Notes: generated by a model from the sequence alone, not told the origin. A stretch of DNA of 64,000 nucleotides from Betaproteobacteria bacterium (GCA_028292435.1 JAQGMI010000152.1:5441-69440); one strand, 5' to 3'; positions 17,895 to 55,429 are shown, counted from the first letter of the stretch. Numbers and translations: made by a program.

Positions 17895-18857
17895 TCATTC
17901 CGTTTTGATGCCCGACGTTTTAACGACGCGCTGCCACTTGGCAATCTCGCGCCGGATATACGCGCCGAATTCACCAGGCGTCGTATTTCCCGGCTCGGAG
18001 CCTTCCGCCGCAAGCCGCGCGCCGATTTCCGGCAGTTGCAAAGCGCGCCTGATTTCGCCGTTAAGCAGCGTGACGATCGCGCGCGGCGTGGCGGCCGGCG
18101 CGACAATGCCCTGCCACGACGTCGCCTCGTATCCAGCGACACCCGATTCGGCGATCGTCGGGAATTCAGGCAGCGCGGAAAGGCGTTGCGCGCTGCTGAT
18201 GGCGAGGCCCTTCAATTTACCGCTCCTGATATGCGGCAGCACGATAGGCGGCTGGCTGAACGTGAGCTGGATATGCCCGCCGAGCAGATCGTTCAGCGCA
18301 AGTGAAGAGCCTTTATAGGGCACATGCGTAAGGTCAATGCCGGCCATGACTTTGAGAAGCTCGACCGCGAGGTGTGCGCCGCCGCCGGTGCCTGACGAGC
18401 CGAAATTAAGCTGACCGGGCCTCGCCTTGGCGAGCGCAATCAATTCGCGAAAATTATTGGCAGGCGTTGCCGCGGTGACGGTCGCCAGATACGGCGTTAC
18501 GAGTGCCAGCGTGACCGGCGCAAAATCGCGCACCGGGTCATAAGGAAGATTCTTGACCGTGCTCACGTTCGTCGCCATCGTGCTGATCGAACTCATCAGC
18601 AGCGTGTATCCGTCGGGCGGCGATTTCGCGGTCGTTACCGCTGCGATGGTGCCGCTGCCGCCGGCACGATTGTCGACGACGACCTGCTGGCCGAGGCGCT
18701 CGTAAAGCTTTTGTCCCAAGGCGCGTGCGACGATATCGGTGACGCCGCCCGGCGCGAAGCCGACGATGAGACGAATCGGTTTAGCGGGCCAGGCTTGCGC
18801 GGATGCAACGCCGGTGACGGCGCACAAAACGCAGATTGCCGCCGAACGCAATATCAA
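17895..18857 (-). CDS. Bug/TctC-family periplasmic solute-binding protein
   Basis: 320 aa with a signal peptide. Motifs APGGVTDIVAR, VDNRAGGSG, HVPYKG, SGKLKGLAI. Confidence 0.9.
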   Translation of the reverse strand: MILRSAAICVLCAVTGVASAQAWPAKPIRLIVGFAPGGVTDIVARALGQKLYERLGQQVVVDNRAGGSGTIAAVTTAKSPPDGYTLLMSSISTMATNVSTVKNLPYDPVRDFAPVTLALVTPYLATVTAATPANNFRELIALAKARPGQLNFGSSGTGGGAHLAVELLKVMAGIDLTHVPYKGSSLALNDLLGGHIQLTFSQPPIVLPHIRSGKLKGLAISSAQRLSALPEFPTIAESGVAGYEATSWQGIVAPAATPRAIVTLLNGEIRRALQLPEIGARLAAEGSEPGNTTPGEFGAYIRREIAKWQRVVKTSGIKTE

Positions 18858-19525: not shown

Positions 19526-20497
19526 TTACTCGGGCTGAATGCCGGCGGACTTTATGAGCTTCGCATACTTCGCGACTTCGCGCCGATAGTACGCCGCGAG
19601 TTCAGCCGGCGTGCTGCCGACGGCATCGGCGCCGTCGCTCGCCATGTACTCGATGACGTCGGGCGACTTCAGCGCTTTGAGGACTTCTGAATTGAGCCGC
19701 GCGACGATTTCGGCCGGCGTCCGCGCCGGCACGAACATCGCATACCAGTTATCGGATTCGAATTCCGGATAAAACGATTTCATCGTCGGCACGTCCGGCA
19801 AAACCGAGGAGCGCTTGCCGGTGGTCACCGCGAGCACCCTGACCTTGCCGCTTTTCATGAACGGCTGCGCCGACAATAGCGGCACGAATGCAATATCCAC
19901 CTCGCCCGAAAGCACCGCGGTGGTCGCGGGGCCGCCGCCTTTGTACGGAACATGCGTGACTTGAACACCCGCGTATTGCTTCAGCATCTCGATCGACAAG
20001 TGGCTGGTCGTGCCGACGCCGTTGGACGACGCGTTGAATTGGCCGACGCGCTTTTTTGCGAGAGCCACGAGCTCGGGCACGTTTCGCACCGGCACGCTCG
20101 GATGCACGGTCAATACGAGCGGCACCGACGACACCCACGACACGGGATCGAAATCTTTGAGCGGATCGAACGTGAGTTTTTTATAAAGACCGGCGTTGAC
20201 CGCAAGCGAGGCACTCGAAAACAGGATCGTGTAGCCATCAGCCGCGGCATGCGCGACGGCTTCGGCACCGATCAGGCCGCCTGCGCCCGTACGGTTCTCG
20301 ACCACGAACGATTGGCCGAAAGTCTCGTAGAACTTCTTGCTGAACAGGCGTGCCTGGATATCGAGGCCGCCTCCCGGCGTGAACGGCACGATGATGCGAA
20401 CCGGTTTTGATGGCCAAGTCTGCGCATAGCTGCCGAAAGACACGCAGGCGAACGCGGCGACCAGCAGGCTGCAATGCCGGCGAACTTGAATATTCAC
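19526..20497 (-). CDS. Bug/TctC-family periplasmic solute-binding protein
   Basis: 323 aa with a signal peptide. Motifs TPGGGLDIQAR, VENRTGAGG, HVPYKG, SGKVRVLAV. Confidence 0.9.
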   Translation of the reverse strand: MNIQVRRHCSLLVAAFACVSFGSYAQTWPSKPVRIIVPFTPGGGLDIQARLFSKKFYETFGQSFVVENRTGAGGLIGAEAVAHAAADGYTILFSSASLAVNAGLYKKLTFDPLKDFDPVSWVSSVPLVLTVHPSVPVRNVPELVALAKKRVGQFNASSNGVGTTSHLSIEMLKQYAGVQVTHVPYKGGGPATTAVLSGEVDIAFVPLLSAQPFMKSGKVRVLAVTTGKRSSVLPDVPTMKSFYPEFESDNWYAMFVPARTPAEIVARLNSEVLKALKSPDVIEYMASDGADAVGSTPAELAAYYRREVAKYAKLIKSAGIQPE

Positions 20498-26079: not shown

Positions 26080-26853
26080 ATGGATTTTGGACTGAAAGGC
26101 AAAGTCGCGATCGTGACCGGCGGCACTGAAGGCATCGGCAAGGCAAGCGCAATCGTTTTCGCCCGCGAAGGCGCCAAAGTTGCAATCTGCGCGCGGACGC
26201 CTGAAGCCGTTGAAAAAACCGTGGCCGAAATCAAGCGCGCCGGCGGCGATGCGTTCGGCATGGCAGCCGACATGAGCAAGATGGAAGACATCGAGCGTTT
26301 CATCAACGCGGTGGTCAAGCAATATGGCGGCATCGACATCCTCGTGAACAATGCGGGCACTTCCGCACGCGGCGCGTTTCTCGAGATCAAGGATGACACC
26401 TGGCACTCAGACATTGAGCTTAAGGTATTTGGCGCAATCCGCTGCACCCGGCTCGCTATCCCGCACATGCAAAAGCGCGGCGGCGGACGCGTAATCAACA
26501 TCACGATCTCGAGCGCCAAACAGCCAGGCGCAGGGTCAATGCCGACGACGATTTCGCGCGCGGCCGGCCTCGCGATTACCAAGGCACTCTCCAAAGAATT
26601 CGCCGCCGACAATATCCTGGTGAACACCGTGTGCATCGGCAAAATAAAATCCGGGCAGCACGAGCGCCGCATCGCCAAAACCGGCGTCACTGCCGACGAC
26701 TACTATTCAAAAGAAGCGAAGCCGATTCCGATGGGGCGCTTCGGCGAGGCGGAAGAAGCAGCGAACGTCATCGTGTTTCTGTGCTCGGACGGTGCGAGTT
26801 ACGTCACCGGCACCAGCGTGCATCTCGACGGCGGCATGTCGGGAGTTTTGTGA
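26080..26853 (+). CDS. short-chain dehydrogenase/reductase (SDR) family protein
   Basis: ATG 26080 follows GGGGGAG. Contains VAIVTGGTEGIGKA and NNAG. The expected YxxxK region reads PTTISRAAG. Confidence 0.8.
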   Translation: MDFGLKGKVAIVTGGTEGIGKASAIVFAREGAKVAICARTPEAVEKTVAEIKRAGGDAFGMAADMSKMEDIERFINAVVKQYGGIDILVNNAGTSARGAFLEIKDDTWHSDIELKVFGAIRCTRLAIPHMQKRGGGRVINITISSAKQPGAGSMPTTISRAAGLAITKALSKEFAADNILVNTVCIGKIKSGQHERRIAKTGVTADDYYSKEAKPIPMGRFGEAEEAANVIVFLCSDGASYVTGTSVHLDGGMSGVL

Positions 26854-26863
26854 GCAGGTGATT

Positions 26864-27820
26864 ATGCGAGCACTGTTCGTCTTCGCGATGCTGGCTGCGG
26901 CCGGCATTGCGACGGCGCAAGACTATCCAAATCGCCCTATCAGGTTCATTGTTCCCTTCCCTCCAGGCGGCGGCAATGACACGATGGCGCGCACGATCGG
27001 CAATAAGCTCGCCGCAGCGCTCGGGCAGCAATTTGTCGTCGATAACCGCCCCGGCGCTGGCGGCATCATCGGCGCGGAGACTGCAGCGCATGCCGCGCCT
27101 GACGGGTACACATTGTTTCTCGGCGGCGTTGCAAGCCACGGCATCAATCCGAACCTCAATCCAAAACTTGGCTACGATCCGATCAAGAATTTCGCGCCTG
27201 TCAGCCTCATCGCCGCAGCGCCTTTGATATTGGTGGTGAATCCGGCGGTACCGGTCAAAACCGTTAAAGAGCTCGTGCAGCTTGCAAAAACAAAACCCGG
27301 GCAGCTCAATTTTGCGTCGAACGGGACTGGCGGCTCGTCGCACATGGCGGCGGAATTATTCAAAATGATGACCGGCACCGACATGGTTCACGTGCCGTAT
27401 AAAGGCCTGTCGCCCGCATTGACGGACTTGTTGAGCGGACAGGTGCAGCTCATGTTTTCGAGCACGGTTGCAATATTGCCGTTGGTACGCGCAGGACGAC
27501 TGCGGCCGCTTGCGATAACGAGTGCGAAACGCTCGTCTGCGATGCCCGAAGTGCCCACGGTCGCCGAATCCGGCGTGCCCGGCTATGAAACGGCATCCTG
27601 GTATGGCGTGCTTGCACCGGCCGGCACCAACAAAGCGATCGTCGACCGCCTCAATCGTGAAATTACCGAAGTCATGAAAATGCCCGACGTCAGAGAGCGC
27701 TTGATGAGTGAAGGTGCCGAGCCGGCAGGCGGATCGCCGGCTGACTTTGCGGCTCACATCAAACGCGAACTCGCACGCTGGTCTCAAGTCATCAAGCAGG
27801 CAAAAATAAAACCGGACTAA
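26864..27820 (+). CDS. Bug/TctC-family periplasmic solute-binding protein
   Basis: Start at ATG 26864 gives the signal peptide MRALFVFAMLAAAGIATA. Motifs PPGGGNDTMAR, VDNRPGAGG, HVPYKG, AGRLRPLAI. Confidence 0.9.
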   Translation: MRALFVFAMLAAAGIATAQDYPNRPIRFIVPFPPGGGNDTMARTIGNKLAAALGQQFVVDNRPGAGGIIGAETAAHAAPDGYTLFLGGVASHGINPNLNPKLGYDPIKNFAPVSLIAAAPLILVVNPAVPVKTVKELVQLAKTKPGQLNFASNGTGGSSHMAAELFKMMTGTDMVHVPYKGLSPALTDLLSGQVQLMFSSTVAILPLVRAGRLRPLAITSAKRSSAMPEVPTVAESGVPGYETASWYGVLAPAGTNKAIVDRLNREITEVMKMPDVRERLMSEGAEPAGGSPADFAAHIKRELARWSQVIKQAKIKPD

Positions 27821-28388: not shown

Positions 28389-31300
28389 CTACTGACCTCG
28401 CCAATTCCAGCGCACCCAATAATATTCCTGGACGCGCGTCATCTGTCCTTCGCGTGCAAGTATCGCGGCATACAGCATCGTCTTTGCAAGGTGCGCCCCG
28501 CGTTCGCGCGATGTGAGGTCGAAAGCTATGTTGTTACCGCCGACCGAAATTTCGAAATCGGGCTTGATGTCTCCGACGAGGGAGTCGAGGACTGACCGCG
28601 GGATTGATGACCGCAGCCACCCGTATGCCTGCCCTTCGTTTTGGAACCACTGATCTACAGTTCGCTGCAAAACCGTGGGTGAGAGCATGTTGAATGCCGA
28701 AAGTGTTAATTCCACATGCGGCATCGCTCCGGCGGGAAATCCGGTCGTTCGAAGTACTCGCGCCAATTCAGCGTGCAACATCGTTCCGAGCCCTGCCATG
28801 GTTGATGATCTGCGGCCGCTGGCCTGAAGGTTGGCGAGCGCCTGGCGGATCGCTGTCTGCAGGTCGATCGCCATGGGTGCAGGCAGCGCTTCTTGTGCCA
28901 CCGGCTGGCCGGCGCTCTGCTCCAGCTGAGCGAAGATTGCATCGATGCGCCGCTCAATGCGCTGCTCGCGATTTTGCGCCTGCCATTGCGCTCGCGGAGT
29001 GGCACGAGTGCCAGGCTGCGGCGTTACACCGCCCATGTCAGCGACGCCAAACTGAGTGGCTGGCGCCGCCTCGGTCACCTCGATTTGCACATCGAACGGG
29101 TTGCCGAAATTAGCCTCGACGGGCGCCGCCGCCTGCATCGGAGCATCAGGCGCAAGTGACAAGTCAACTGGACCCGCGAACGGCACATCGACTGCCGAAG
29201 ACACCATCGGACCGCGACCCTCCGAGACAGAGAGCAGCTGCTCGCCGATGGGGCCACTGCTCTGCGGCATCAAGTGCACGGGCTCCGATCCCTCGAGAGT
29301 TCTGGAGATCAGTTGGTTCAGGAGGCTTCGTTGGAGCCAGCCTTTGATGCCCTTCGCGGGACCGTAAGATGATGGGGCGGGAGCGACCGGTTCCGGCGCG
29401 ATCGTGGAGACCTCGGCTTCCCCCGTGGATACCAGCGGCTCCGTTGGAGCTTCGTTGGGTGCCGCCGCCTCGGGTTCGACCGTAGTGGCCTTGGGCACCG
29501 CACGCGGCCGGGGCATTAATTTTATTAGCGCGCTCGAAGGCCCACCCATGATGCCGCCCCACGCCCCCGCTTCAAGCCACGACGCCGGCCCGCCGATCTG
29601 CGCAGCCTGGAAACGACGCTCCGATTCGGACAGCGATAATTGCGCTGCGAGGAAACTCGTCGCATCGGTTGCTGCTGCACCGGCGATGCCCGAGGAGACG
29701 CCGGCAAACGTACCTTCTGTGTATGCAGCAGCCACGGTACCCGACTCGAGGCCTAGCGCGCCCGAGGCTGCCGCGCCGAACTCTCCGAAGAAAGGCATGG
29801 CGACCGCGAAATCCATGATCGCGCCTTTAAGGATATCCGAGGGATGGAAGTCATTTAGGTCGTTATAGGAGATGTGGCCCAAACGATAGGCATGTGCTCG
29901 CGCAGCGCGCATGTCCATCCCGAATCCGCTCGCGAGGTTGCTGGTACCGTGCATCAATTTGTTCGCACCCAGCCCGAGTTTGTTGCCAGCCCATGCAAAG
30001 TATGAAAGCCCGCCCTCATCCCAATCTTCACTGGCAGCTTTTCGGATGTCATCAGCGTTTTCCTCCCATGCTTCACCCGCAGTTTGGTCCGGCATGTTCG
30101 AGCTACGGAAATCGTTCATCGCTTGCATCACGGTGTCGGCCCGACTGGCGAGAGAATGAGCGTCCGAACTCACCTTGGCGATGAGACCGGCCTGGTCTTT
30201 ATTACCGGGCATGAGAACACTCGCCAGGGTGTCTGCAGATTTTGCGAATTTAGGCATCACTTCGTGGGCGAGCGCGTAGATCTCATCTTGCGTGTAATCG
30301 GCCGGGTCCGCTGCGATTGCATTCAAACGCTCGCCGTATTTTTCGAGCAGCCATTCGACCTGAGCATTGAGCAACGCGATTTCCGACAACTGGCGCGCAT
30401 CGTTCAATGCGATGAGCGTCCACAAGTAAGCGCCTCGCATCGAAAGCGGATCGAGAGATGCCAGCGCAAGCGCGCCGTGATCGTCCTGCAAGCGCTTGAA
30501 ATTTACCGTGAACGTCAACTCGCTTTCGATGTCCATCTGCCCGTCCGGGTCGGGTAACTCGACATTGAGCAGCGGATCGCCAAGCGGTTCCAGCATCTGA
30601 CGTGCAGCTTCATTGCGGGCGATCTCAGCGACGTACACCTCAACGTCGGTGTGGCTGCGGGCTGCGTTAAGCATGCCGGGCATCAGCGCGGCGATCAGCT
30701 CTTCGCGCGAAACGTATTCGGTCGTAGGTGCGAGGAATTTCGAAAGCGGGGCTTGCGCGAAAAAAAGACCTTTTTCACCGTCATACGGCACGCCGCGGCG
30801 AAGGTGTTCTCGCCGATAGGCGGCGTCCTGCAGCAACTGAAGGGACTCGCGGTCGAGTGCGACTGCAAGAAATGGATAGTCGGCAAGCGGGTTCTCGGGT
30901 ATCGGCTCGCAGACCGCCGGGTCATCGGCGGAGCACGTCGACTCAAGAGGTTTGCGCTGCAGCCGTTTTCGCCCGGAACGCTGTTGTTGCTGCACGTGAG
31001 CGAGCTCGTGTGCTATCAGCAGCTGCCCACGCGTTGTATCGGGCCGCAATTCATCACGGCCGAAAAAAACTTCGCTGCCCTGCGTAAAGGCGCGCGAGCC
31101 GTGGGCGGCGGCCGCCGTTTCGGCGGCGGGGCCAGCGTGCATGCGCACGTCCTTTAACGATGTCCCTAAGCGAGCTTCCAGGCGTTCTTGCTGTCCTAAA
31201 GGTAGGTCCTTTAATTTAGGCTCCGCATCATTGTTGAAATTTTGAGCGGGCTTGTTGAGCGTCGCGGAAGATGAGACGACGTCCTCCGCAAAGCGATCTG

Positions 31301-31559
31301 CTTCCTGCTCGTGGCTGTCGCCGCGGGAATCGGCACCACGCTTGGTGTTTACTTTTGCTTGGGCACGGAAGTTTGCCGTTTGCGCGATTCGCTGCTCTGC
31401 TTGATTGCCCGCCGCACGTTGCGCATCTCCCGCTGTCCGGTCGCTGCTTTTCGCTCCCGTTCGCCGTAACGTCCTGGACGGCATGTCATGCTCAGGTCTC
31501 GACTTCGGGTGATGGTCAAAATCCGACACGATCAAATCCGCGCGTAACGGTGCTATCAC
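28389..31559 (-). CDS. giant DUF4157-domain protein, putative eCIS cargo/effector 1
   Basis: 1056 aa. AGNQAEQRI...AQAKV...HEQEADRFAEDV leader, then the DUF4157 core LKDVRMHAGPAAETAAAAHGSRAFTQGSEVFFGRDE...LIAHELAHVQQQ (about nt 30975-31208). It is the last gene of the operon. Confidence 0.8.
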   Translation of the reverse strand: MIAPLRADLIVSDFDHHPKSRPEHDMPSRTLRRTGAKSSDRTAGDAQRAAGNQAEQRIAQTANFRAQAKVNTKRGADSRGDSHEQEADRFAEDVVSSSATLNKPAQNFNNDAEPKLKDLPLGQQERLEARLGTSLKDVRMHAGPAAETAAAAHGSRAFTQGSEVFFGRDELRPDTTRGQLLIAHELAHVQQQQRSGRKRLQRKPLESTCSADDPAVCEPIPENPLADYPFLAVALDRESLQLLQDAAYRREHLRRGVPYDGEKGLFFAQAPLSKFLAPTTEYVSREELIAALMPGMLNAARSHTDVEVYVAEIARNEAARQMLEPLGDPLLNVELPDPDGQMDIESELTFTVNFKRLQDDHGALALASLDPLSMRGAYLWTLIALNDARQLSEIALLNAQVEWLLEKYGERLNAIAADPADYTQDEIYALAHEVMPKFAKSADTLASVLMPGNKDQAGLIAKVSSDAHSLASRADTVMQAMNDFRSSNMPDQTAGEAWEENADDIRKAASEDWDEGGLSYFAWAGNKLGLGANKLMHGTSNLASGFGMDMRAARAHAYRLGHISYNDLNDFHPSDILKGAIMDFAVAMPFFGEFGAAASGALGLESGTVAAAYTEGTFAGVSSGIAGAAATDATSFLAAQLSLSESERRFQAAQIGGPASWLEAGAWGGIMGGPSSALIKLMPRPRAVPKATTVEPEAAAPNEAPTEPLVSTGEAEVSTIAPEPVAPAPSSYGPAKGIKGWLQRSLLNQLISRTLEGSEPVHLMPQSSGPIGEQLLSVSEGRGPMVSSAVDVPFAGPVDLSLAPDAPMQAAAPVEANFGNPFDVQIEVTEAAPATQFGVADMGGVTPQPGTRATPRAQWQAQNREQRIERRIDAIFAQLEQSAGQPVAQEALPAPMAIDLQTAIRQALANLQASGRRSSTMAGLGTMLHAELARVLRTTGFPAGAMPHVELTLSAFNMLSPTVLQRTVDQWFQNEGQAYGWLRSSIPRSVLDSLVGDIKPDFEISVGGNNIAFDLTSRERGAHLAKTMLYAAILAREGQMTRVQEYYWVRWNWRGQ

Positions 31560-31607
31560 ATCGACACATGGGCGCTTTCGTCGCCCCTGCGCGACGGGAG
31601 AAATCCT

Positions 31608-34600
31608 TCATCGCCACGACATGACTCTCACTTCGACGGGCACTCCCGGTCCTTCGGTGGAATTCACGACAGCTTGCTCGGCTGCACGCTGCAGCGACTC
31701 CACCGCTGCTCGGGCTTCTCCGCGAACCTGTATATGCAGAATCGCTCGTTCCGGCGATGCCGGTTCGATACGGACGTACCAATCGTGAGCCGGATCGTAT
31801 TCAGCTTTGCGGCCCGACTTTCGATTCATGTCTTTCAATGCCGCCTTTACAACTTTGTCGATGTAATCCGGCGTGGCGTCCGTTCCTTCGACTTGAGTTT
31901 TGTCGCTTAACCATTCGCCTCCTTCAATACTTATATTCATGACCGTCTGCTTGGTCTTCGGCGTCCCTAAACTCTCGACGGTAAATTTGACGGTAGCCGT
32001 GCCGCCGCGAACGTGATCGTACGCCGGATATCCTGCCGGCAGCTGTCGCATGCCGGGGTAAAACTTTCCGATGTTCGGCTCTGCCGCAAGGCCCGCAGGT
32101 TGTTGCGCAGGGAACGCGTTTTCGAATCCGCCGGCGGGAGGCAAACCTGGCAGGTTTGCTCCGGGAAGCGCTTTGGGAGGCGGCTCTGAGGGCCCCGGCG
32201 GCAAGGCGGCCGGGGCGGTGCTCGTCGGCGGCGCTTGATTATTGGTGGCGTTTAGCAAAGGAACTTCCGGCTGCAATTCACCGCCTTTGACGACTCGTGT
32301 TTTGCCACCGGAATATACGATGCCGTCCCCTGTGATCCGGTTGATGCGGAAGATCCCGTTTGAGTTGTTAGCGGGGTCGACCACAACACCTAAACAGTCT
32401 CCTGTTTCGGGGTTGTCGCTGATTATTCTCCACACAAACTTAGGCTTGGGCGGCGGCCCGGGAGCAAGCGCGTCCTGCGACCCCAATTCAATAGTGTCCC
32501 CGCTTGACACGACTTGCACCGGCTTGGACGAGGGCACCTTGACGATCGATTTGCTTTTACCCGCCGAAGCATTGGGAGCCCCTACCTTTGACTCAGCAAT
32601 CCGCTTAGCCGCCCAGCCACCGGCTGTGGACGCAATTGCAGCCGCCGTATTGAGGATGGCTAGCAGAAGCGCGGCCTGATCCGCGTCATTCTGTGCTTTC
32701 GCTTCATCAACTTGTGCCGGCGTAACAAGGTCGGTACCAGGCTTTACCGCCACTTTTGAGGCCAACAGCATTGCCTTGTATTGCTCAGCCGACATGCCGG
32801 CTTTTGCGCTCGTGGCAACCAGGCCAACGATTGAAGCGGCAACGCCACCTACCCCGGGCACGACCCCACCAATCATGAACGCCATCTGACTGACAGCTTC
32901 TAAACCCAAAGCTTTGAGTGCCTTGTCGTTGTCATGCCCTTGCGTAAGACCTTTAGCGAGCTTGCGCGGAAGAGCCAAAGCCCAATTGGTTTTACTGGTT
33001 GCCTCGATCCCGTTGTAAAGCTGCTCATGCAGGAGCGTTAAATCAAGCGGATTGAGCGCGTTGCCAAGCTTCGCTTTAGCTTGCGTTATATCGCCGCGAA
33101 GCTTGTTCAGCGCTGCGGCAAGCTGCTTACGCGCGACGGCTGGATCGGCTTGCGCAAACGACTGGGTCGTCTCGCTCTTTCCCTCCCGGGTGATCGCATA
33201 AATCAATGGATGTTTGGTAACAAGCGCTCGAATGCCTTCAATGCCCAATTGATATGCATTCAGCATTTCACCGTAAGACTGCAAGTTGACCGGACGGTCC
33301 TGCGGATGGTGAACCGGGTGGTGATCCGCCATTGGGCTGGGATCGTTTAAATCGACCACCGGCGCGGCGGCCCGTTCGGGCGGATGAAATGGATCGAACG
33401 TAACCGGGATCCAATACTGCTTTGACTCGAGGCCTACATGGCCCAGGCTATAGCCCACGTAAACTTGGCGCGCGCGATCCATCTCCTCCTGCGCGTGGGC
33501 TACAGACGCAGCGGCTGATTTCATCGCCAGCATCTGCTGCTCCTGATTCACCGCGGGTGCGCCACTTTGCGGCGCGTCGCCCAATGGAATTCCGGCGGCT
33601 TGCGATTCCGATACAACCAGAGCATCGTTCTGATCGAGATAGCGTGTAGCGAGCGCAACGACATCCGGCGTAAACGCATCGCGCAGTTCTTTGACCTTTG
33701 GAAGATCCTCCAGCTCGGCCCCCGCCTCAACGCTTGCTTCCCATAAAGCCAGGCCTATGAAGCTGGATGCGGCGGAAACAAGCCGATCACCGAAACTCTT
33801 CCAGATGTCCTCCAGCGCATACTCGTCATTGGGACCGACCCAAGTTTGGTCGAGCACGATCCTGATCAGCTTGAACTTGTCCTCTTCGCTCACCTCGTAA
33901 AAGTTTTTAATGTCCTGCACATCGCCGGACTTTTTCGATTTCAGCGCTTTCTCGACCAATTCCTTATTCTTGCGAGATGCTTCGGCGGGTATGGAGGCCG
34001 TTGGTTGTGAGGCCGTCGACGCTCCCGCCGGGACTGATGCAGGCGCCGTACCGGAAGTCATTCCCGCGCTATCCGGCGCACGGTTGATTCTCGCGTTCAC
34101 GCCGGCGGATGTCTGCTGCACGACATGGGCAAGTTCGTGCGCGAGAAGCCTGCGGCCATCCTTCGTGGTCGGTGAAAATTCGTTTTTTCCGAAAACGACA
34201 TGCTCTCCGGCGGTATACGCTTTGGCTTGAATCGCTCGGGCAGACTCGGCGGCGGAATTGTCTGCATGCACTCGAACACCGCTGAAGTCAGTGGCAAACC
34301 GTTGCTCGAAGTCACTTCGAATCCGCGGAGGTAGCGGCTGCCCCCCCGTGCTCAAGCTGAGCGATTCAGATGATGGATTGCTCAATGCTGACTTTCTTTG
34401 CCCGGGCACCACCTTGCGCCGGATTTTTTCTTCTGCCTCTCCATTTCGGCGCGAAGGCGGTGCATATGGCTCGCTCGCCGAAATGCGCTCAGAGGTTTGA
34501 TGTGCGGCGGGCATTTGAACTTCGTTGAAGCGTCCTGCTGTTGCGAATTTGGTCGAAGCTCTGCCGTTGCTCTTTGCCGAGAGCGGCAGATCCAATACTC

Positions 34601-34997
34601 GGTCCGCAATGCGATCGGCTTCCACTTCGTCCGGGTCAGATGGGTCGCTGACGCTCAGCTTCGCCTGAATTCGACTCGATCTGAGCAAACACTGCACGGC
34701 GAGATTCCCTGCGAGCAGCATATTTCCGCCGGGTGCATGAGTCTCCCCATGTGAATCGCGATTCACGCGCTTGCCCGCTTCGATAGCAGCGTTGCGAGCA
34801 AGCGGTTGACGCGGCTTATCGAGATTATGAGCAGGCAACTTATTCGCCTTGCCGGCGGATCCTGGCATCGAAACAACCGAGCGCGGTTTCGGCGAGGCAC
34901 TTGGTCGTTTTACGCTGCTTTTCGATCGCGCAGCCGCACGCTCCGGCACCGGTCGTGCAACTGGCGCCATTTTCTTTGCGGCTACGGCACTCATCAC
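31608..34997 (-). CDS. giant DUF4157-domain protein, putative eCIS cargo/effector 2
   Basis: 1129 aa. AGNLAVQCLLRSSRIQAKLSVSDPSDPDEVEADRIADRV leader and DUF4157 core FSGVRVHADNSAAESARAIQAKAYTAGEHVVFGKNEF...LLAHELAHVVQQ (about nt 34107-34346). The likely true start, ATG 34994, overlaps the ATPase stop (TGATG). Confidence 0.85.
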   Translation of the reverse strand: MMSAVAAKKMAPVARPVPERAAARSKSSVKRPSASPKPRSVVSMPGSAGKANKLPAHNLDKPRQPLARNAAIEAGKRVNRDSHGETHAPGGNMLLAGNLAVQCLLRSSRIQAKLSVSDPSDPDEVEADRIADRVLDLPLSAKSNGRASTKFATAGRFNEVQMPAAHQTSERISASEPYAPPSRRNGEAEEKIRRKVVPGQRKSALSNPSSESLSLSTGGQPLPPRIRSDFEQRFATDFSGVRVHADNSAAESARAIQAKAYTAGEHVVFGKNEFSPTTKDGRRLLAHELAHVVQQTSAGVNARINRAPDSAGMTSGTAPASVPAGASTASQPTASIPAEASRKNKELVEKALKSKKSGDVQDIKNFYEVSEEDKFKLIRIVLDQTWVGPNDEYALEDIWKSFGDRLVSAASSFIGLALWEASVEAGAELEDLPKVKELRDAFTPDVVALATRYLDQNDALVVSESQAAGIPLGDAPQSGAPAVNQEQQMLAMKSAAASVAHAQEEMDRARQVYVGYSLGHVGLESKQYWIPVTFDPFHPPERAAAPVVDLNDPSPMADHHPVHHPQDRPVNLQSYGEMLNAYQLGIEGIRALVTKHPLIYAITREGKSETTQSFAQADPAVARKQLAAALNKLRGDITQAKAKLGNALNPLDLTLLHEQLYNGIEATSKTNWALALPRKLAKGLTQGHDNDKALKALGLEAVSQMAFMIGGVVPGVGGVAASIVGLVATSAKAGMSAEQYKAMLLASKVAVKPGTDLVTPAQVDEAKAQNDADQAALLLAILNTAAAIASTAGGWAAKRIAESKVGAPNASAGKSKSIVKVPSSKPVQVVSSGDTIELGSQDALAPGPPPKPKFVWRIISDNPETGDCLGVVVDPANNSNGIFRINRITGDGIVYSGGKTRVVKGGELQPEVPLLNATNNQAPPTSTAPAALPPGPSEPPPKALPGANLPGLPPAGGFENAFPAQQPAGLAAEPNIGKFYPGMRQLPAGYPAYDHVRGGTATVKFTVESLGTPKTKQTVMNISIEGGEWLSDKTQVEGTDATPDYIDKVVKAALKDMNRKSGRKAEYDPAHDWYVRIEPASPERAILHIQVRGEARAAVESLQRAAEQAVVNSTEGPGVPVEVRVMSWR

Positions 34998-37177
34998 TTT
35001 ATCGCGCTGATCGTGCGTGAACGCTTCCGCGGCGGCTCGCCCACCAATCCCTGATACTGTCGAAAATCGGCGGCCGTCGGCGTCTTACCTTGCTTTGCCA
35101 TTTGCCGCGCGAGCGCTTCGATCACGCACCGCATATCGATTACGTTACTTCCTTGCGCCGCCAGAAACGCCGCGTCCAGCGCAACGTTGCGGATATCGCC
35201 CCCCGCGAGATCGAACTGTTTTGCCAAAAACGTGAAATCAACATCTTCGGCGAGCGGCGCACGCGCCGGGAACATGCCGCGCCACAGGTGCATGCGCTGT
35301 TCCTCATCGGGCGGCGGAAAGTCGATCACGTAATGCACGCGACGATTGAACGCGTCGTCGATATTGCGGCGCAGGTTGGTGGCCAGAATGACGATGCCGT
35401 CGTGCTCTTCGAGCTTCTGTAATAGATAGGCCACTTCGATATTGGCGTAGCGGTCGTGCGCGTCTTTGACTTCGGAACGCTTCCCCATGATCGCCTCGGC
35501 TTCGTCGAGAAAGACAATCGCGTTCGACGTGCGCGCCGCATAGAAAATCCGATCGAGATTTTTCTCCGTTTCGCCGATATATTTGCTGACGATACCGGAC
35601 AGGTCGATCTTGTACATATCGAGGCCCAGATCCCGCGCGATCAGCCCGGCGGCCATGGTCTTACCGGTCCCTGATGGACCTGCGAACAGTGCTTTCACGC
35701 CAGTGCCCGTGCTTACCCGGGCGGCGAAACCCCAATCGTTGTAGACGACATGCCGGAAGCGAATTGCCGCCGTCATCTCATCCAGACGTTGCATCGTATT
35801 AGCGGGCAACACGAGGTCTGAGCGTGCATAACGCGACTCGATTTTCGTCGCAAGCCGTTCGAGACTTTGATCTGCACCCATGCGAACTGCGCTGGCGAGC
35901 GCGGCGGCGTCGATGCCGTCCTGTTCACCATTAAGCAGTTTGATGTCGCGCGCGCTGGCGATAGCGTCGTCGATTTGTCCTGGCGACAATGCAAATCGAT
36001 TCGCGAGCAGTTGCGCATCGGCCACCGGCAAATCGATCTGGCGCCGCGCGAGCAGTTTTTGCCACACTGCCGTCGCCTGCGAAAAATCGTCGAGCACGAA
36101 ACGGAATTCCAGCGCGCGGCGCCCGCGCATCCACGGGCGCCCGGAAGCGCCAGGCGCTACGCTGAGAACGATCGGCGATCCTACTTCTGCGAGCGCGCAA
36201 GAGAGATCGCACGTCTTTGGTGCCCCGTGAGCCTCCGCCGGCAAGCCGTCGAAACCGACGATGTGCAGCACTGCGGGGCGCAAGCGCAGCTGCAGTGCAA
36301 GCAGCGCCAGCAGGTCCGAAAAATTGTCGTCCCGCAACGCCAGCGCCAGATCGAATGTGCAAAGAGGCAGACGCAGTGCCAACGCAAGCGCTTCCGCGGT
36401 GGCGCTACGGCCCGCACCGCCGCTGCCCGAAAAAATCAGTACATTGGACTTGCACCCGTCGGCGTAAAGCGCCGGCAGCTTTGACAGCTCATGTTGGCGT
36501 TGATCGGATAACGGTAAATCCTGCCATCTCAGCGCCGGCCTGGTGATGCGCGCAACGCCGGCCAGCCGCGCGTCGTCTGCGGCCACGCCCTTCAAGTATT
36601 GCGCGACAGGCGTGCTGACAAAAAATCCACCATTGAGCAAGGCCGCGTGGCCCGTCGGCGGCGCAGTGCGTTCAAGCAATAACTCCCTGAACAACGGCCC
36701 GTGCGGCGAAAGCGCCTCGAGTACTGAGACCGCGCCGTGAACGTGGGCAAACAATCGCTCGGCCATGTCGAACGTCGGCCATTTACGCGTCACGTCATTA
36801 TTCAGATAAGCGAACACGGTCTCATAGCGAAGATCGAATTCCACCGCCGATCCCAATAGCAGCAAGTGCTGATCGACCGTCGCCAGACCAAACTCCGAGG
36901 CCAACTCTTTCCATGCGCGGCTCGTGAAGTCCGGATGCGGATATCCGACGTCGGAATCGGTTTGAGCCGCAGCCACTCCGCGCTCGCCTGCAATCCACTC
37001 GTCAACCTGCGCATCGCTCACATAAAGTCCGCGAAATTCATCGAGCGACAGTTGATAGCGGGTGCGCAACCGCTCGATCTCGCGCCCGAGCAGCGAGTCG
37101 AGCCACGCGAACTGAAGCTGCATGTCTTCTGGAATCGCCATTGCGCCGGTTAGTCGCTCGTGAATAGCCCGTAACAT
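34994..37177 (-). CDS. AAA+ ATPase, Afp15/Pvc15-like eCIS assembly/cargo-loading ATPase
   Basis: 727 aa (alternative start at Met 37141 avoids overlap with the upstream gene). C-terminal AAA module: Walker [14 protein letters not shown], Walker [11 protein letters not shown], and [13 protein letters not shown]. Confidence 0.9.
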
Positions 37178-38712
37178 CGCGCATCGCCGAATGGCAGCAC
37201 GTACTTGCCTCCAGTCATTCCGGTCAAGTTCAGGACGAGATGCAAAGGTGCGCGCGCCAATCGAACCACGATGCGCTCAGTTTCAAGGTCGACATGCGCG
37301 CGAAGGTCGAGAAAGTTCTTCCATAGATACGCACAACTCGAATCGGTGAACCCGGGTAGTCGCTTCCCGAATCGCCGCATGACTTCGTATGCAAGCGCAT
37401 TGATCATGCGCGTCCAGCCGGACAGAGGGTGTCCATTCTTTATCGATCGGAAGTACTTTTTATCGGTCGACGAGATGCGCAATGGCCGCTTGTGTTGTGC
37501 CGTGAACTGCTTAAACGAGCGCGCTAACCGCAGCCGCGGCAAGTCGCCTCCGCTTAGCAGTTGCGCAATCGCTTCGACACGCAGTCGTCCGGTTGCGGAT
37601 TCGTCAATGCCGCAAGCAAAGCGGAGCACAGCGTCTTCGTAAGCGATGTCGGCGTTGTCCGCGCCGGTGCATGCCGACAAAACCAGCAGCCGGAGGACTG
37701 CAACCGCGCTATCATCATTCCCAAACGCCGACGCAACGTTCGATTGGTGAAACGTTTCGGCCAGAAGAGGCAGCAGCAAAAAGCAGCCACCGAATGAGGT
37801 GGTGTAAGACATCAGCGTCGAGGGATCTATTACTCGGGATGTAGGGGGTTTGAGCAGATCGGCGACGAGCCGCCGCCCCGCTCGCTCGAGATACGCGAGT
37901 GCCTCACCGTATCTTTCGATTTCCATTGAATGCGGCCAGGTGCCGGTCTCAGCAAGCACCCTTTGCAATTCACGCAGGGCATCGATGGCTGCGTTCAGTT
38001 GGCTGCCGCTCGCGCCGTGTTGCGATGCATGCACAAATAGATTGAGCGTCTGCGCTTCGCTCGAGAGCCGGTGATCGGCCCCATGCCCCAATGCATGGAG
38101 GCATGCGTTCAGACACGACTCCAATGCCGCCGCATTGCCGGCATGCCCCAGATTGATGCGCACCGCGCGCGCATCGTTTGCCGACATTGCGCTGGCAACC
38201 ATTGCCACTTCGTCGTCGCGCATGCGCTGAAGCGCCGTCATACCGAGCCCGGGATCTTCACAGATTGCAGTGCGCAGCACCGCACTCGCCGGCAACAACC
38301 CCAGGCCGCGGTACCGTCCGTAATACCAGCGGCTCCATGCATCGCCATTGGCGCTGTCGATCAGGAACCGCATGAGCAAAGCCGCCGCATCGGCAAAACG
38401 GATCGCTCCGATACCGTCACCATCGCCAACGAGCACATCACGTAAGTTGGCGGCGACCGCACGTGCGACATCCCGCGACAAGTCATCGCTCGGCAGGATA
38501 GCGTTCGCTGCGACGTCGATGTCCACGCGCCGCACCACCCAGATGCTCGCATCATCGCGGTCGCACCAGCGAGCCAGCGTCGCTGACAGCGACCTTTCAA
38601 GCCGTTCGCGTATCGCCTCGTCGCAGCGCGCGCGTATTGCATTCGCATCGGGCGCCGCGCGATCGATCATATATTCGGCGTCGACGCGGCCAATGGTGAG
38701 CTTACCTTCCAC
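37150..38712 (-). CDS. eCIS tape-measure-like protein (Afp14 position)
   Basis: 520 aa between the fibres and the ATPase. The internal hydrophobic FGGCFLLLPLLAETF and the C-terminal NFLDLRAHVDLE...VVRLARAPLHLVLN...YVLPFGD resemble my recollection of contractile-injection-system tape measure proteins. Confidence 0.5.
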   Translation of the reverse strand: MEGKLTIGRVDAEYMIDRAAPDANAIRARCDEAIRERLERSLSATLARWCDRDDASIWVVRRVDIDVAANAILPSDDLSRDVARAVAANLRDVLVGDGDGIGAIRFADAAALLMRFLIDSANGDAWSRWYYGRYRGLGLLPASAVLRTAICEDPGLGMTALQRMRDDEVAMVASAMSANDARAVRINLGHAGNAAALESCLNACLHALGHGADHRLSSEAQTLNLFVHASQHGASGSQLNAAIDALRELQRVLAETGTWPHSMEIERYGEALAYLERAGRRLVADLLKPPTSRVIDPSTLMSYTTSFGGCFLLLPLLAETFHQSNVASAFGNDDSAVAVLRLLVLSACTGADNADIAYEDAVLRFACGIDESATGRLRVEAIAQLLSGGDLPRLRLARSFKQFTAQHKRPLRISSTDKKYFRSIKNGHPLSGWTRMINALAYEVMRRFGKRLPGFTDSSCAYLWKNFLDLRAHVDLETERIVVRLARAPLHLVLNLTGMTGGKYVLPFGDARCYGLFTSD

Positions 38713-52883: not shown

Positions 52884-53417
52884 CTAGCCGGCAGCGCCCG
52901 CCATGCCGGGCCGCGATGCGACCCCTGGCACCTGGTAAATGCCTTCATGCGCGATTTCGATCGATTCGATGGCGACCGCACTCTGGGCGGCGTTTAACTG
53001 CGGCGCGGTGTATTTAACCGGCAACCCGCGCCGGAAATACCAGAGGTGCTGCGGCTCGCGGCTTGCGCCGAGCAAAGCAATTACGCCGTCGCGCCGCTTG
53101 CCGCGGCCTTCGACGAAGCCGAAGTGCCAGTCCCAGAGTTCGTTGGACAGGCCGATGCCTTTTTTGAGCGTGACATTGCTCCATGTGATGCGGCTGGCGA
53201 ATTTGAGCACCGCATCATTGCGCCCGCCCTCCTTGTATTCTTCCGGCGCCATCGACATTTCAATGCCCGTGCATTCGGAGAACCCGGCAGCGGCGACGTC
53301 CAGAATGCCCGACAGCGCAACCGATGGCGCGGCGCCCAGCGAACTCGACGAATCGACAAGACTAATCACGAAATTACGCGACAGCAACGGATCGCTGCGA
53401 CTGCCCACGGCGGCCAT
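52884..53417 (-). CDS. tail tube protein (T4 gp19-like, Afp5-like)
   Basis: 177 aa. DPLLSRNFVISLVD...AAGFSECTGIEMS...KEGGRN...TWSNVTLKKGI. Confidence 0.85.
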   Translation of the reverse strand: MAAVGSRSDPLLSRNFVISLVDSSSSLGAAPSVALSGILDVAAAGFSECTGIEMSMAPEEYKEGGRNDAVLKFASRITWSNVTLKKGIGLSNELWDWHFGFVEGRGKRRDGVIALLGASREPQHLWYFRRGLPVKYTAPQLNAAQSAVAIESIEIAHEGIYQVPGVASRPGMAGAAG

Positions 53418-55429
53418 CAGAATTCCCCCGCCAATGCGACTTCACTGATTTCGAAGGCGTCCTCGCCGTAACCTACGCGCAGGACCACGAATTCAAACGG
53501 CGTGCTCGGAGCAACGCCTACTTCGGCGATGAGTTGGCCGCGGTCGCGGGCCGCCGGCGGACTCGTGTCTTCATTGCAGTTGACGAAAAATGCTTCCTTA
53601 ACGGAAGCGCCTGCCAATGCGCCGCGCTCCCACAGCGACAGCAGAAAGCTCGTCAGCGCGAGATGCACTTTCGCGCGCGTATATCGGTCGTTAGTTTCAA
53701 ACACTGCCCATTGGCACGAGACTTCGATCGCTTTTTCGATCATCAGCATCAACCGCCGCACGTTGACGTAACGCCATGACGGATCGCTCGACAACGTGCG
53801 TGCGCCGAACACGCGCAGCCCGCGGCCGGGAAATGCGCGCAATGCATTGACGTGTTCTTCGTTCAGCAATCCATGCGATGCATCATCGATGGTCAGCGAC
53901 AGCCGCTGCGCCCAGTTCAAGCTGCCGTTGGCAGGCGCCTTATGAACGCCGATCTGCAGATCCGTTTGGGCGACAAATCCCGCGACGTGTCCGGACGGCG
54001 GAACCAACCGCGTCAGCTCGCCATTCAGGAGAAGAGGATCGGGCGCGGCGACCCAAGGCGCATACAACGCGGCGAACGTCGAGTCGAAACGTTTGCGCCA
54101 GGCGCGGATCGGATCGATTCCAAGGCGTGCATCACGCACCGCCGTATAGGGCGGATCGAGCAGCGCGATGCGGTCGTGGTGGCTTTGGCAATGATCAATG
54201 GCCGCGCTTTGGACCTGATACACGGCTTCATCGTCGAATAGCGGCGGTAGATCGCCAACGCTGCGCATACGCGGGACAGCAGGTGGGAACGGCGGCGCGG
54301 GCAGGCACGGGTCGGGCACGCAGACGACCGGCGGCGCTTTGGCTGGCGGCAGCACCGGCTGGATGTGGATGTCGGGCACCGCGACCAGCGCCACTTCGGT
54401 GATCGGGTCGAGCGCGCGCAGGCCGCGCATTTTCTCGCGGCGCGCGAATTCGTCATCGAGCACGTCCCCCGCTTCGCCGATAAAGTCGCGCACGCTCAAT
54501 GCGGCGAGTCCATCAGCGCCGAGCGTCAAGGCGACGGCATCAACCGTCACCTGCAATGGTGCAAGCTCCCGTCGTTGCATCGGCGTGCGTTTGTCGATCA
54601 GCACAACCGGATCGGCCGCTGCGGGCACTTTCCAGCCGATCGCATCGGACGGCGCTTCGGCAATCCGGGGCAAAACGCGCGGACCATAGCGTGGATGGTC
54701 GGGAACCAGCGACAGGCCCTGATAAACTGCGATCACGCGCCCGAGCTCTCGCACGAGCAAGGTGTATTCGACGCTTTCGATGAGCAACGGCCGATTCAAG
54801 TCATAACCGGTAAGTTGCTTCTCATAATCGGAGCGCGCCTCAGGTTTGGGATTGATCCAGTAGAGGCGTTTTGTTGCGGCGTCCACTGCAGCAACCGCAC
54901 GAAATGCCGGCGCAACAGGATCAGTCGCAATTCGCACATGCGTGCCGGCAATAAATCCGGCAACAGTAGTCACGGCCGCATAGTCCGGCGTCGAAAGTGC
55001 GGGGTCGGCAACCGTTTGGGCAAGATGCGTTGCGCGCAACTCGAAGGTGAGATCGTTGCCCCAGACCCCGGCGCTCGATGCACACACGTCCCACGCGGGG
55101 TACGGTGGCGGCGGCACCAACATCGGCAGCCTCGCGTTGACGGTCGACGCAGCGGCAACGGCAGCATCCGATGCGACGCGTACGATCCAGCAGCGCGCGC
55201 CGCCGTTCTCGAAAAACGCGCGCACTGCATAAGCGAGATACGCCGCGCCGGTGAAGTCGCCGAAATGCGCGACGAACTGGCGCCACGACTCGATGGGTAA
55301 AGCCTGGTGCAAAGGCCCTCGCCTCGCCATGCCGACGAAACCCGTGATGTCCGTTCGCAGCGGCGCCACGCGCGGCACGCCCGCATCGGTGCGATGGTAG
55401 TAGACGCCGGGCGTTGAATAGAGAGGCAT
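53417..55429 (-). CDS. contractile tail sheath protein (shorter paralogue)
   Basis: 670 aa. N-terminus STPGVYYHRTDAG...TGFVGMARRGP and C-terminus GVHKAPANGSL...LNEEHVNALRAFPGRGLRVFGARTLSSDPSWRYVNVRRL. Confidence 0.9.
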   Translation of the reverse strand: MPLYSTPGVYYHRTDAGVPRVAPLRTDITGFVGMARRGPLHQALPIESWRQFVAHFGDFTGAAYLAYAVRAFFENGGARCWIVRVASDAAVAAASTVNARLPMLVPPPPYPAWDVCASSAGVWGNDLTFELRATHLAQTVADPALSTPDYAAVTTVAGFIAGTHVRIATDPVAPAFRAVAAVDAATKRLYWINPKPEARSDYEKQLTGYDLNRPLLIESVEYTLLVRELGRVIAVYQGLSLVPDHPRYGPRVLPRIAEAPSDAIGWKVPAAADPVVLIDKRTPMQRRELAPLQVTVDAVALTLGADGLAALSVRDFIGEAGDVLDDEFARREKMRGLRALDPITEVALVAVPDIHIQPVLPPAKAPPVVCVPDPCLPAPPFPPAVPRMRSVGDLPPLFDDEAVYQVQSAAIDHCQSHHDRIALLDPPYTAVRDARLGIDPIRAWRKRFDSTFAALYAPWVAAPDPLLLNGELTRLVPPSGHVAGFVAQTDLQIGVHKAPANGSLNWAQRLSLTIDDASHGLLNEEHVNALRAFPGRGLRVFGARTLSSDPSWRYVNVRRLMLMIEKAIEVSCQWAVFETNDRYTRAKVHLALTSFLLSLWERGALAGASVKEAFFVNCNEDTSPPAARDRGQLIAEVGVAPSTPFEFVVLRVGYGEDAFEISEVALAGEF

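Follow-up and report, generated by a model that had tools for sequence, protein, structure and literature searches.

DUF4157 is a marker of the toxins of extracellular contractile injection systems (eCIS), the toxin domain being C-terminal (PMC8213781; PMC11297309). About half of the predicted eCIS toxins carry it, and 983 of 1130 of those have no annotated toxin domain (PMC11297309). The locus analysed here lies in a stretch of 64,000 nucleotides from a Betaproteobacteria bacterium (GCA_028292435.1, JAQGMI010000152.1:5441-69440; hereafter the window), in which the minus-strand open reading frame (ORF) 31608..34997, stop codon included, encodes a DUF4157 protein of 1129 residues. In this work we present evidence that the C-terminal module of this protein belongs to a rare family and is remotely homologous to the PD-(D/E)XK nuclease of EC869, a toxin of contact-dependent growth inhibition (CDI), and that the gene probably encodes a cargo toxin of the eCIS encoded upstream. 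A DUF4157 effector with a C-terminal nuclease is of an expected kind, restriction-endonuclease-type eCIS-associated toxins (EATs) having been validated (EAT9; PMC11297309); the novelty lies in having recognised a rare, unannotated domain family and connected it with CDI nucleases of the EC869 type. This places one blank DUF4157 C-terminus in a defined and rare family that comprises 46 clusters.

The reading frame had been proposed from the sequence by an earlier model-based reading of the window (the original prediction), and it is confirmed by the list of ORFs and by the database protein P0003, which is identical save for a start one codon later (ATG at 34994, giving 1128 residues). GC content by codon position is 0.64/0.49/0.60, with the same pattern in every segment of the gene, and the protein has hundreds of homologues; a chance ORF is therefore ruled out.

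A rare family of C-terminal modules

The module and its key residues are the following.

31611..32099, minus strand: C-terminal module (residues 967-1129), PD-(D/E)XK-like and resembling the C-terminal toxin region of CdiA (CdiA-CT) from EC869/TA271, as judged from profile search, AlphaFold2 (AF2), Foldseek, hhalign and conservation
32079-32081, minus strand: predicted catalytic residue E973
32016-32018, minus strand: predicted catalytic residue D994
31905-31907, minus strand: predicted catalytic residue S1031
31899-31901, minus strand: predicted catalytic residue K1033
31770-31772, minus strand: invariant R1076

Both limits of the module differ from those first proposed. The original prediction had started it at GYPAYD (residue 989) and ended module and protein at ERAILHIQVRGEA (1083-1095). 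The start of the conserved domain lies near G969/E973, some 20 residues earlier, and 34 more residues follow the supposed end, up to ...VEVRVMSWR (1129); the module is therefore delimited as 967-1129.

A word-indexed homologue search with the module returned only two to four short fragments and missed the full-length orthologues that bear it, so that an exhaustive search of representatives was needed. With HMMER, 46 of 1.84 billion representatives (50% identity clusters, from a library of about 15 billion proteins) were matched at E <=1e-3, and the module lies mostly at the extreme C-terminus of these proteins. PF13699 (DUF4157) was present in 21 of the 44 representatives scanned and other Pfam domains in none of the 44, many of the remainder being fragments. 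No Pfam model capturing the family was found, and a scan of GTDB genomes gave zero loci for the close subfamily and placed a second subfamily in two metagenome-assembled genomes (MAGs) only.

In the 46-sequence alignment, with a sequence identity of only 24-70%, E973 (45 of the 45 sequences covering the position), D994 and R1076 (46/46 each) are invariant. The S1031 position is occupied by S in 36 and by Q in 9 of the 46 sequences, and the K1033 position by K in 36 and by H in 5, with I or V in some members. A [FY]P--D...(S/T)-x-K pattern had been picked out by eye in the module. Its Asp is D994, aligned with the catalytic Asp of EC869, whereas its Lys, K1004 of T1002-V-K1004, is found in only 5 of the 46 sequences; the conserved S-x-K is S1031-D-K1033.

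Some members of the family extend beyond the module. In the subfamily of P0128, P0130, P0139, P0140 and P0152 (L008:6097-8201, L009:5742-9347) the module is not terminal and is followed by a Gly/Ala-rich, hydrophobic and glycine-zipper-like tail of ~200-250 residues, e.g. GVGTAIGFIVGIGVGIGAYYLL; this tailed subfamily occurs in one betaproteobacterial and one alphaproteobacterial MAG. The divergent subfamily of P0154, P0157, P0159 and P0165 also has extra sequence past the module, three of the four proteins ending in a similar stretch (...W..Q....R....V.Y.K...G.WR.....).

Remote homology to the EC869/TA271 nuclease

The nuclease 4G6U (the EC869 CdiA-CT, now TA271) is a Zn2+-dependent DNase of the PD-(D/E)XK type with the active site E177, D198, S209 and K211, and in the related CDI toxin E479 a His replaces the catalytic Lys (PMC9086364). 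Comparison of the family profile with PDB sequences gave a weak match to 4g6u_A (E 0.12) in two pieces, which align the family motifs G..AE, LP..F..(Y/F)D and S.K(T/S)...A(T/N)P..V to the same elements of the toxin. By this alignment E973 corresponds to E177, D994 to D198, S1031 to S209 and K1033 to K211, and the spacing from Glu to Asp is 21-22 residues in the module family versus 21 in EC869. The Pfam model PF21111 (CDI_toxin_EC869_like) matched 5 of 32 family members weakly (best E 7.9e-4), and the one match inspected covered 23 residues. For a comparison of profiles, an EC869-like set was built from domains of Salmonella, Proteus, Ralstonia and Sulfitobacter plasmids. With hhalign, the module profile matched this profile with 92.7% probability (P 4.3e-7) in an alignment of 119 columns that extends across both domains, and further local and global runs gave 88%; the controls, a reversed template and 22 column-shuffled ones, gave at most 0.8% (P >=0.067).

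The predicted structure points in the same direction. An AF2 model of the module from a 32-sequence alignment reached a predicted local distance difference test (pLDDT) score of 91.1 and a predicted template modelling (pTM) score of 0.84; an earlier run with 3 sequences had a pLDDT of 55 and was discarded. The elements of the model follow in the order helix, strand, beta-hairpin, strand, helix, three strands, helix, strand. Foldseek placed 4g6u_A first in the PDB (E 8.6e-3, probability 0.96), the next match having a probability of 0.09. In the viral library a 'type VII secretion protein' encoded by a phage ranked first (probability 0.92).

Taken together, the profile, hhalign and Foldseek results make the module a well-supported remote homologue of the EC869-type PD-(D/E)XK nuclease, as far as sequence comparison and modelling go. 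They back the guess of a restriction-endonuclease fold that the original prediction had offered as a weak by-eye call, although its reasoning was only half right. The biochemical prediction is that of a PD-(D/E)XK nuclease in which E973, D994, S1031 and K1033 would be catalytic.

Several observations weigh against this assignment. The Foldseek superposition on 4g6u_A has a template modelling score (TM-score) of only 0.40/0.32 and a root-mean-square deviation of 10 A, and 4ZQU, though a related structure, is absent among the 50 Foldseek matches listed. PF21111 does not match the module of the 1129-residue protein even at E 10; the family members that it does match score far below its gathering cut-off of 27 bits, and membership of PF21111 was not found at Pfam's gathering level. 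Moreover, some family members lack K1033. The spacing from Asp to Ser is 33-43 residues, versus 11 in EC869, which implies a hairpin insertion of ~25 residues inside the catalytic core.

A search of PDB sequences with the whole protein gave nothing at E 1, and NCBIfam nothing meaningful. With the family profile, the top PDB sequence matches, Mn superoxide dismutase and TyrRS (E 0.03-0.1), were supported by neither motif nor fold and were set aside as chance. An ADP-ribosyltransferase R-S-E reading made by eye (VRGG...WLSDK...PER) was also rejected, since neither spacing nor secondary structure agrees with it and it found no backing in any search.

Among the EC869-like plasmid sequences, those of Sulfitobacter (NZ_CP116427.1, L005:490-975, and NZ_CP084956.1, L006:490-981) are orphan toxin remnants in which a TAG stop (GGPW*DH) at the codon of the catalytic Glu splits the ORF in two. 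The second of them has an annotated CDI immunity gene directly 3', and the two look like a disarmed toxin retained alongside its immunity gene.

A constant carrier with an exchangeable cassette

Upstream of the module, the protein is divided as follows.

34728..34997, minus strand: basic, Pro/Ser/Ala-rich N-terminus (residues 1-90), by composition
34593..34727, minus strand: leader GNxAxQxLL...IQAKL...PxDxxExEADxxAxxV (residues 91-135), by motif position and recurrence in relatives
34104..34337, minus strand: DUF4157/eCIS_core domain PF13699 (residues 221-298), Pfam 105.9 bits, E 1.2e-30 (gathering cut-off 22 bits)
34125..34139, minus strand: HExxH motif, here HELAH (residues 287-291), by motif position
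32598..34064, minus strand: conserved trunk (residues ~312-800), by ends of BLAST high-scoring segment pairs and alignment of relatives
32805..32879, minus strand: first Gly-rich hydrophobic segment, FMIGGVVPGVGGVAASIVGLVATSA (residues 707-731), Kyte-Doolittle >1.5 in windows starting at 705-713
32607..32669, minus strand: second hydrophobic segment, LLLAILNTAAAIASTAGGWAA (residues 777-797), Kyte-Doolittle >1.5 in windows starting at 774-776
32253..32447, minus strand: small domain VWRIISDNPETGD...GGKTRVVKGGELQPE (residues 851-915), by jackhmmer
32100..32252, minus strand: Pro-rich linker (residues 916-966), with 13 Pro within residues 901-950

This layout largely agrees with the architecture first read from the translation. 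The N-terminus, poorly conserved across orthologues, has the composition expected of the basic, disordered region that had been claimed (18 K+R, 5 D+E, 11 P and zero aromatic residues in the first 90). The leader, GNMLLAGNLAVQCLL...IQAKL...DEVEADRIADRVL in this protein, recurs in relatives with the alignment consensus GNxAVQxL...IQAKL...PxDPxExEADRxADxV, and it is followed by the DUF4157 core with HELAH. The two hydrophobic stretches that had been pointed out are the only parts of the whole protein with Kyte-Doolittle windows above 1.5; F707 and G715 of the first are invariant in the alignment of relatives. The Pro-rich linker that had been cited falls at residues 922-957.

The trunk has no match in Pfam, NCBIfam or PDB sequences, and it is common to DUF4157 proteins that bear other C-terminal toxins. 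Residues ~95-800 are shared by 18 of the 119 best full-length homologues found by BLAST. Three of these (P0004-P0006, 52-56% identity) align through the C-terminal end and have the same module. In the other 15, which lack it, homology ends at residues 768-822, around or just past the second hydrophobic segment, the final conserved element of the trunk. Pfam identifies the extreme C-termini of three of the 15 as NTP_transf_2 (P0012), a MafB19-like deaminase (P0019) and a colicin/pyocin-S2 DNase (P0033). Because the trunk is shared while these relatives diverge at its end, three of them bearing other toxin domains, the 1129-residue protein is built like a polymorphic toxin, with a constant carrier and a C-terminal cassette (residues ~800-1129) that can be exchanged. 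The boundary near residue 800 is clean and could be of use in engineering eCIS payloads.

The cassette holds the small domain, the Pro-rich linker and the nuclease module. According to jackhmmer the small domain is confined to the closest orthologues (P0003-P0006 and P0123), and the contig L001 encodes one too; segments of P0126 and P0163 that seemed related by eye were not supported by jackhmmer. In the orthologue on L001:1-907 (the contig of P0001, JGI 3300057020) one in-frame stop lies between the small domain (...GKTRVTIGWQIQPERSLL*) and the linker with the nuclease module, and gene calling there gives the module a gene of its own, of 186 residues. This stop could be a sequencing error, the mark of a pseudogene or a real split of carrier and toxin.

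The eCIS operon and its surroundings

The gene is the penultimate one of a complete eCIS operon that runs on the minus strand from 61173 to 28389. By Pfam, the operon encodes Pvc16_N, two sheath proteins, a gp19-type tube protein, CIS_tube with LysM, a Phage_base_V spike, gp25, Baseplate_J, Tail_P2_I, a fibre with a Peptidase_S74 chaperone and an AAA+ ATPase. Its neighbours on either side are:

34994..37177, minus strand: AAA+ ATPase of the Afp15/Pvc15/Alg15 type with a winged-helix domain (PF00004, E 2.4e-27; PF22977), upstream
28389..31559, minus strand: second DUF4157 protein, 1056 residues, with another C-terminus (PF13699, E 7.4e-25), downstream

The ATPase stop codon and the beginning of the toxin gene overlap, and the order ATPase followed by DUF4157 gene is also seen in the loci of P0005 and P0006. 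By analogy with known systems, the ATPase is presumed to be the cargo loader. The second DUF4157 gene begins 48 nt 3' of the toxin gene and closes the operon; past it lie genes for a TctC protein, a short-chain dehydrogenase and a protease. Scans for promoters and terminators between the genes gave nothing exceeding chance.

The second DUF4157 protein has the same leader motif as the 1129-residue protein and an unrelated C-terminus (...DFEISVGGNNIAFDLTSRERGAHL...WVRWNWRGQ) without a Pfam or NCBIfam match, and is probably another cargo toxin with another unassigned toxin domain. Over both effector genes (30001-36000) GC content is 0.576-0.586, versus 0.60-0.63 in the flanks, and the AT skew is -0.09 to -0.14; the low GC may reflect horizontally exchanged cassettes. 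Between the fibre and ATPase genes, the ORF 37150-38712 (minus strand, 520 residues) has no Pfam match. It occupies the same place as a gene for a 504-residue CIS_TMP (tape measure, PF19268) protein in the P0006 locus and for this reason is probably the tape measure protein. The two sheath genes, 53417-55429 and 55938-59087 (both minus strand), differ strongly in length (670 and 1049 residues), the longer product having ~750 additional N-terminal residues without a Pfam match. Three paralogous TctC-family (Bug-like) periplasmic receptor genes (17895-18857, 19526-20497 and 26792-27820) flank the operon, and a sigma-54 activator gene (62067-63104) lies just upstream of it. TctC and sigma-54 activator genes also adjoin the orthologue loci of P0006 and P0004. 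These neighbours hint at a host among the Betaproteobacteria, to which the TctC paralogues point, and possibly at sigma-54 control of the operon.

Possible function and alternative explanations

We consider it probable that the product of the gene is a modular cargo toxin belonging to the Afp/PVC-like eCIS encoded upstream, with a C-terminal PD-(D/E)XK nuclease for which DNA would be the likeliest substrate. The effector role claimed in the original prediction gains support from the position at the operon's 3' end after the ATPase, from a layout like that of the AlgoCIS cargo proteins and from the toxins found at the same C-terminal slot in relatives. The AlgoCIS proteins Cgo1 and Cgo2 of Algoriphagus machipongonensis are composed of an N-terminal domain (NTD), DUF4157 as well as a C-terminal domain (CTD), fill the lumen of the tube and are lost on contraction (PMC8894135); their NTD is needed for loading, DUF4157 is dispensable, and loading proceeds via the AAA+ protein Alg15 (bioRxiv 10.64898/2026.05.27.728243). 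By analogy, residues 1-90 are presumed to be a disordered loading signal, which the ATPase would recognise in order to thread the protein into the tube lumen. The HExxH-containing DUF4157 domain and the ~480-residue trunk ending in the two hydrophobic segments would then serve as the constant carrier, residues 800-1129 as the exchangeable cassette and residues 967-1129 as the nuclease, an activity suggested by sequence. Upon sheath contraction the protein would be expelled into a target cell and its nucleic acid degraded, DNA being the likeliest target and tRNA a possible one.

Loading, injection and toxicity are all proposed by analogy, and this must be counted against the cargo toxin reading, as must the immunity question. 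No small immunity-like gene lies 3' of the toxin gene in the window, where the next gene is the second DUF4157 gene, and no co-directional small gene was found 3' of the orthologues P0004 and P0006 or of the relative P0168. For the small ORFs 3' of orthologues in L007 and L001 (two after P0005, a single one in L001) the window has no equivalents, and they were rejected as immunity candidates. The EC869-like plasmid toxins have an annotated CdiI immunity gene next to them, and the lack of one is unusual for a nuclease acting on bacteria. Many eCIS toxins without an adjoining immunity gene were noted earlier (PMC8213781). As no immunity gene accompanies the toxin gene, the producer is presumably protected in some other way or the target is not kin. 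A CDI-type nuclease consistently without an adjoining immunity gene sharpens the puzzle of how eCIS producers tolerate their own toxins.

The same architecture and delivery could also serve an RNase, for example a tRNase such as the Burkholderia CdiA-CT 1026b or E479, and we regard this as unlikely but worth keeping in mind. Near-identical active sites are indeed divided between Zn-dependent DNases (TA271, YPIII) and tRNases (1026b, E479) (PMC9086364), and the invariant R1076 and the hairpin insertion, both lacking in EC869, could each alter substrate binding. However, profile, Pfam and fold all give the DNase 4G6U as the nearest relative, with neither 4G6V nor 5J4A among the matches, and S-x-K fits the DNase branch, the 1026b toxin having an Asp there (PMC9086364). 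A catalytically dead relic, or a binding or structural domain resembling EC869 in fold only, would be expected to show the lack of a Pfam match, the low TM-score and the variable Lys position described above. It would hardly be expected to keep E973 and D994 invariant across such divergent sequences, with S/Q and K/H retained in 41-45 of the 46; the 1129-residue protein itself has all four catalytic-equivalent residues, and its module fills the slot of known enzymatic toxins. We hold this to be the least probable of the explanations.

It is also very unlikely that the protein is a particle assembly factor, with DUF4157 as metallopeptidase or chaperone and the module acting in the producer, e.g. 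by degrading DNA during lytic release. PF13699 is now named 'eCIS core domain' in Pfam, it has been proposed that DUF4157 acts as a chaperone or in an immunity-like way and that the toxins may have a part in producer lysis (PMC8213781, PMC11297309), and a cell already fated to lyse would fit with the missing immunity gene. Yet both AlgoCIS DUF4157 proteins have been located within the tube and leave it upon contraction (PMC8894135), DUF4157 is not needed for their loading (bioRxiv 10.64898/2026.05.27.728243), and polymorphic C-terminal toxins swapped on a constant trunk are a mark of delivered toxins and not of assembly factors.

Returning to the cargo toxin, a further idea concerns the trunk (~310-800). 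Ending in a Gly-rich hydrophobic helix pair just before the recombination point, the trunk might be a dedicated translocation module that, once injected by the eCIS, moves exchangeable cassettes (nuclease, deaminase or nucleotidyltransferase) across the target membrane. In the producer the nuclease would stay latent, being unfolded or masked up to a DUF4157-dependent processing step. We propose this only tentatively and think it doubtful. A latent nuclease would account for immunity genes being systematically missing, and such a module, if real, would be the eCIS counterpart of the entry domains of colicins and CdiA.

Comparison with known systems

As in AlgoCIS, two DUF4157 genes stand at the 3' end of the eCIS operon, after an AAA+ ATPase gene. 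The 1129-residue protein shares with Cgo1 and Cgo2, and with EATs bearing an N-terminal DUF4157, a putatively disordered N-terminus, DUF4157 with HExxH and a variable CTD, and is of comparable size (Cgo2 has 1228 residues). It differs from them in the ~480-residue conserved trunk with two hydrophobic segments and in the EC869-like CTD; the likeness shown here is one of layout and DUF4157.

The module resembles the EC869/TA271 and YPIII toxins (4G6U, 4ZQU; PF21111) over its whole length: alpha1 with Glu, LPxxFxxxD, S-x-K-T and A-T/N-P, followed by a helix, the hLhhxVP strand, a helix and the final strand, with the E/D/S/K tetrad. Unlike them, it shows an identity to EC869 of only ~18-20%, below the Pfam threshold, and has a ~25-residue beta-hairpin between Asp and the S-x-K strand as well as extra strand(s) carrying the invariant Arg. 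Its context is also different from that of CdiA-CT, being eCIS/DUF4157 and not CdiA (type V secretion system), with no CdiI-type gene downstream and no Pfam match to haemagglutinin or filamentous haemagglutinin (FHA) repeats in the N-terminal 800 residues.

PD-(D/E)xK DNases as C-terminal toxins of polymorphic toxins are also known from BaCT and PoNe, and BaCT, reported fused to DUF4157 (PMC7073777), is a precedent for the present combination. BaCT is about 300 residues long, occurs almost only in Bacteroidetes, has an invariant (D/E)xK and is paired with the immunity protein BaCTic. By these descriptions the module is set apart from it, with ~160 residues, S/Q-x-K/H, proteobacterial-type high-GC loci and no immunity gene.

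Finally, the protein follows the general plan of polymorphic toxins (Zhang et al. 2012; CdiA, Rhs, MafB, LXG), although no cognate immunity gene adjoins it and, by analogy, an extracellular contractile particle would deliver it. The N-terminal trafficking part and the trunk are constant and lead to a recombination point, beyond which the toxins are interchangeable: on the trunk described here they include a colicin-type DNase, a deaminase, a nucleotidyltransferase and the EC869-like nuclease.

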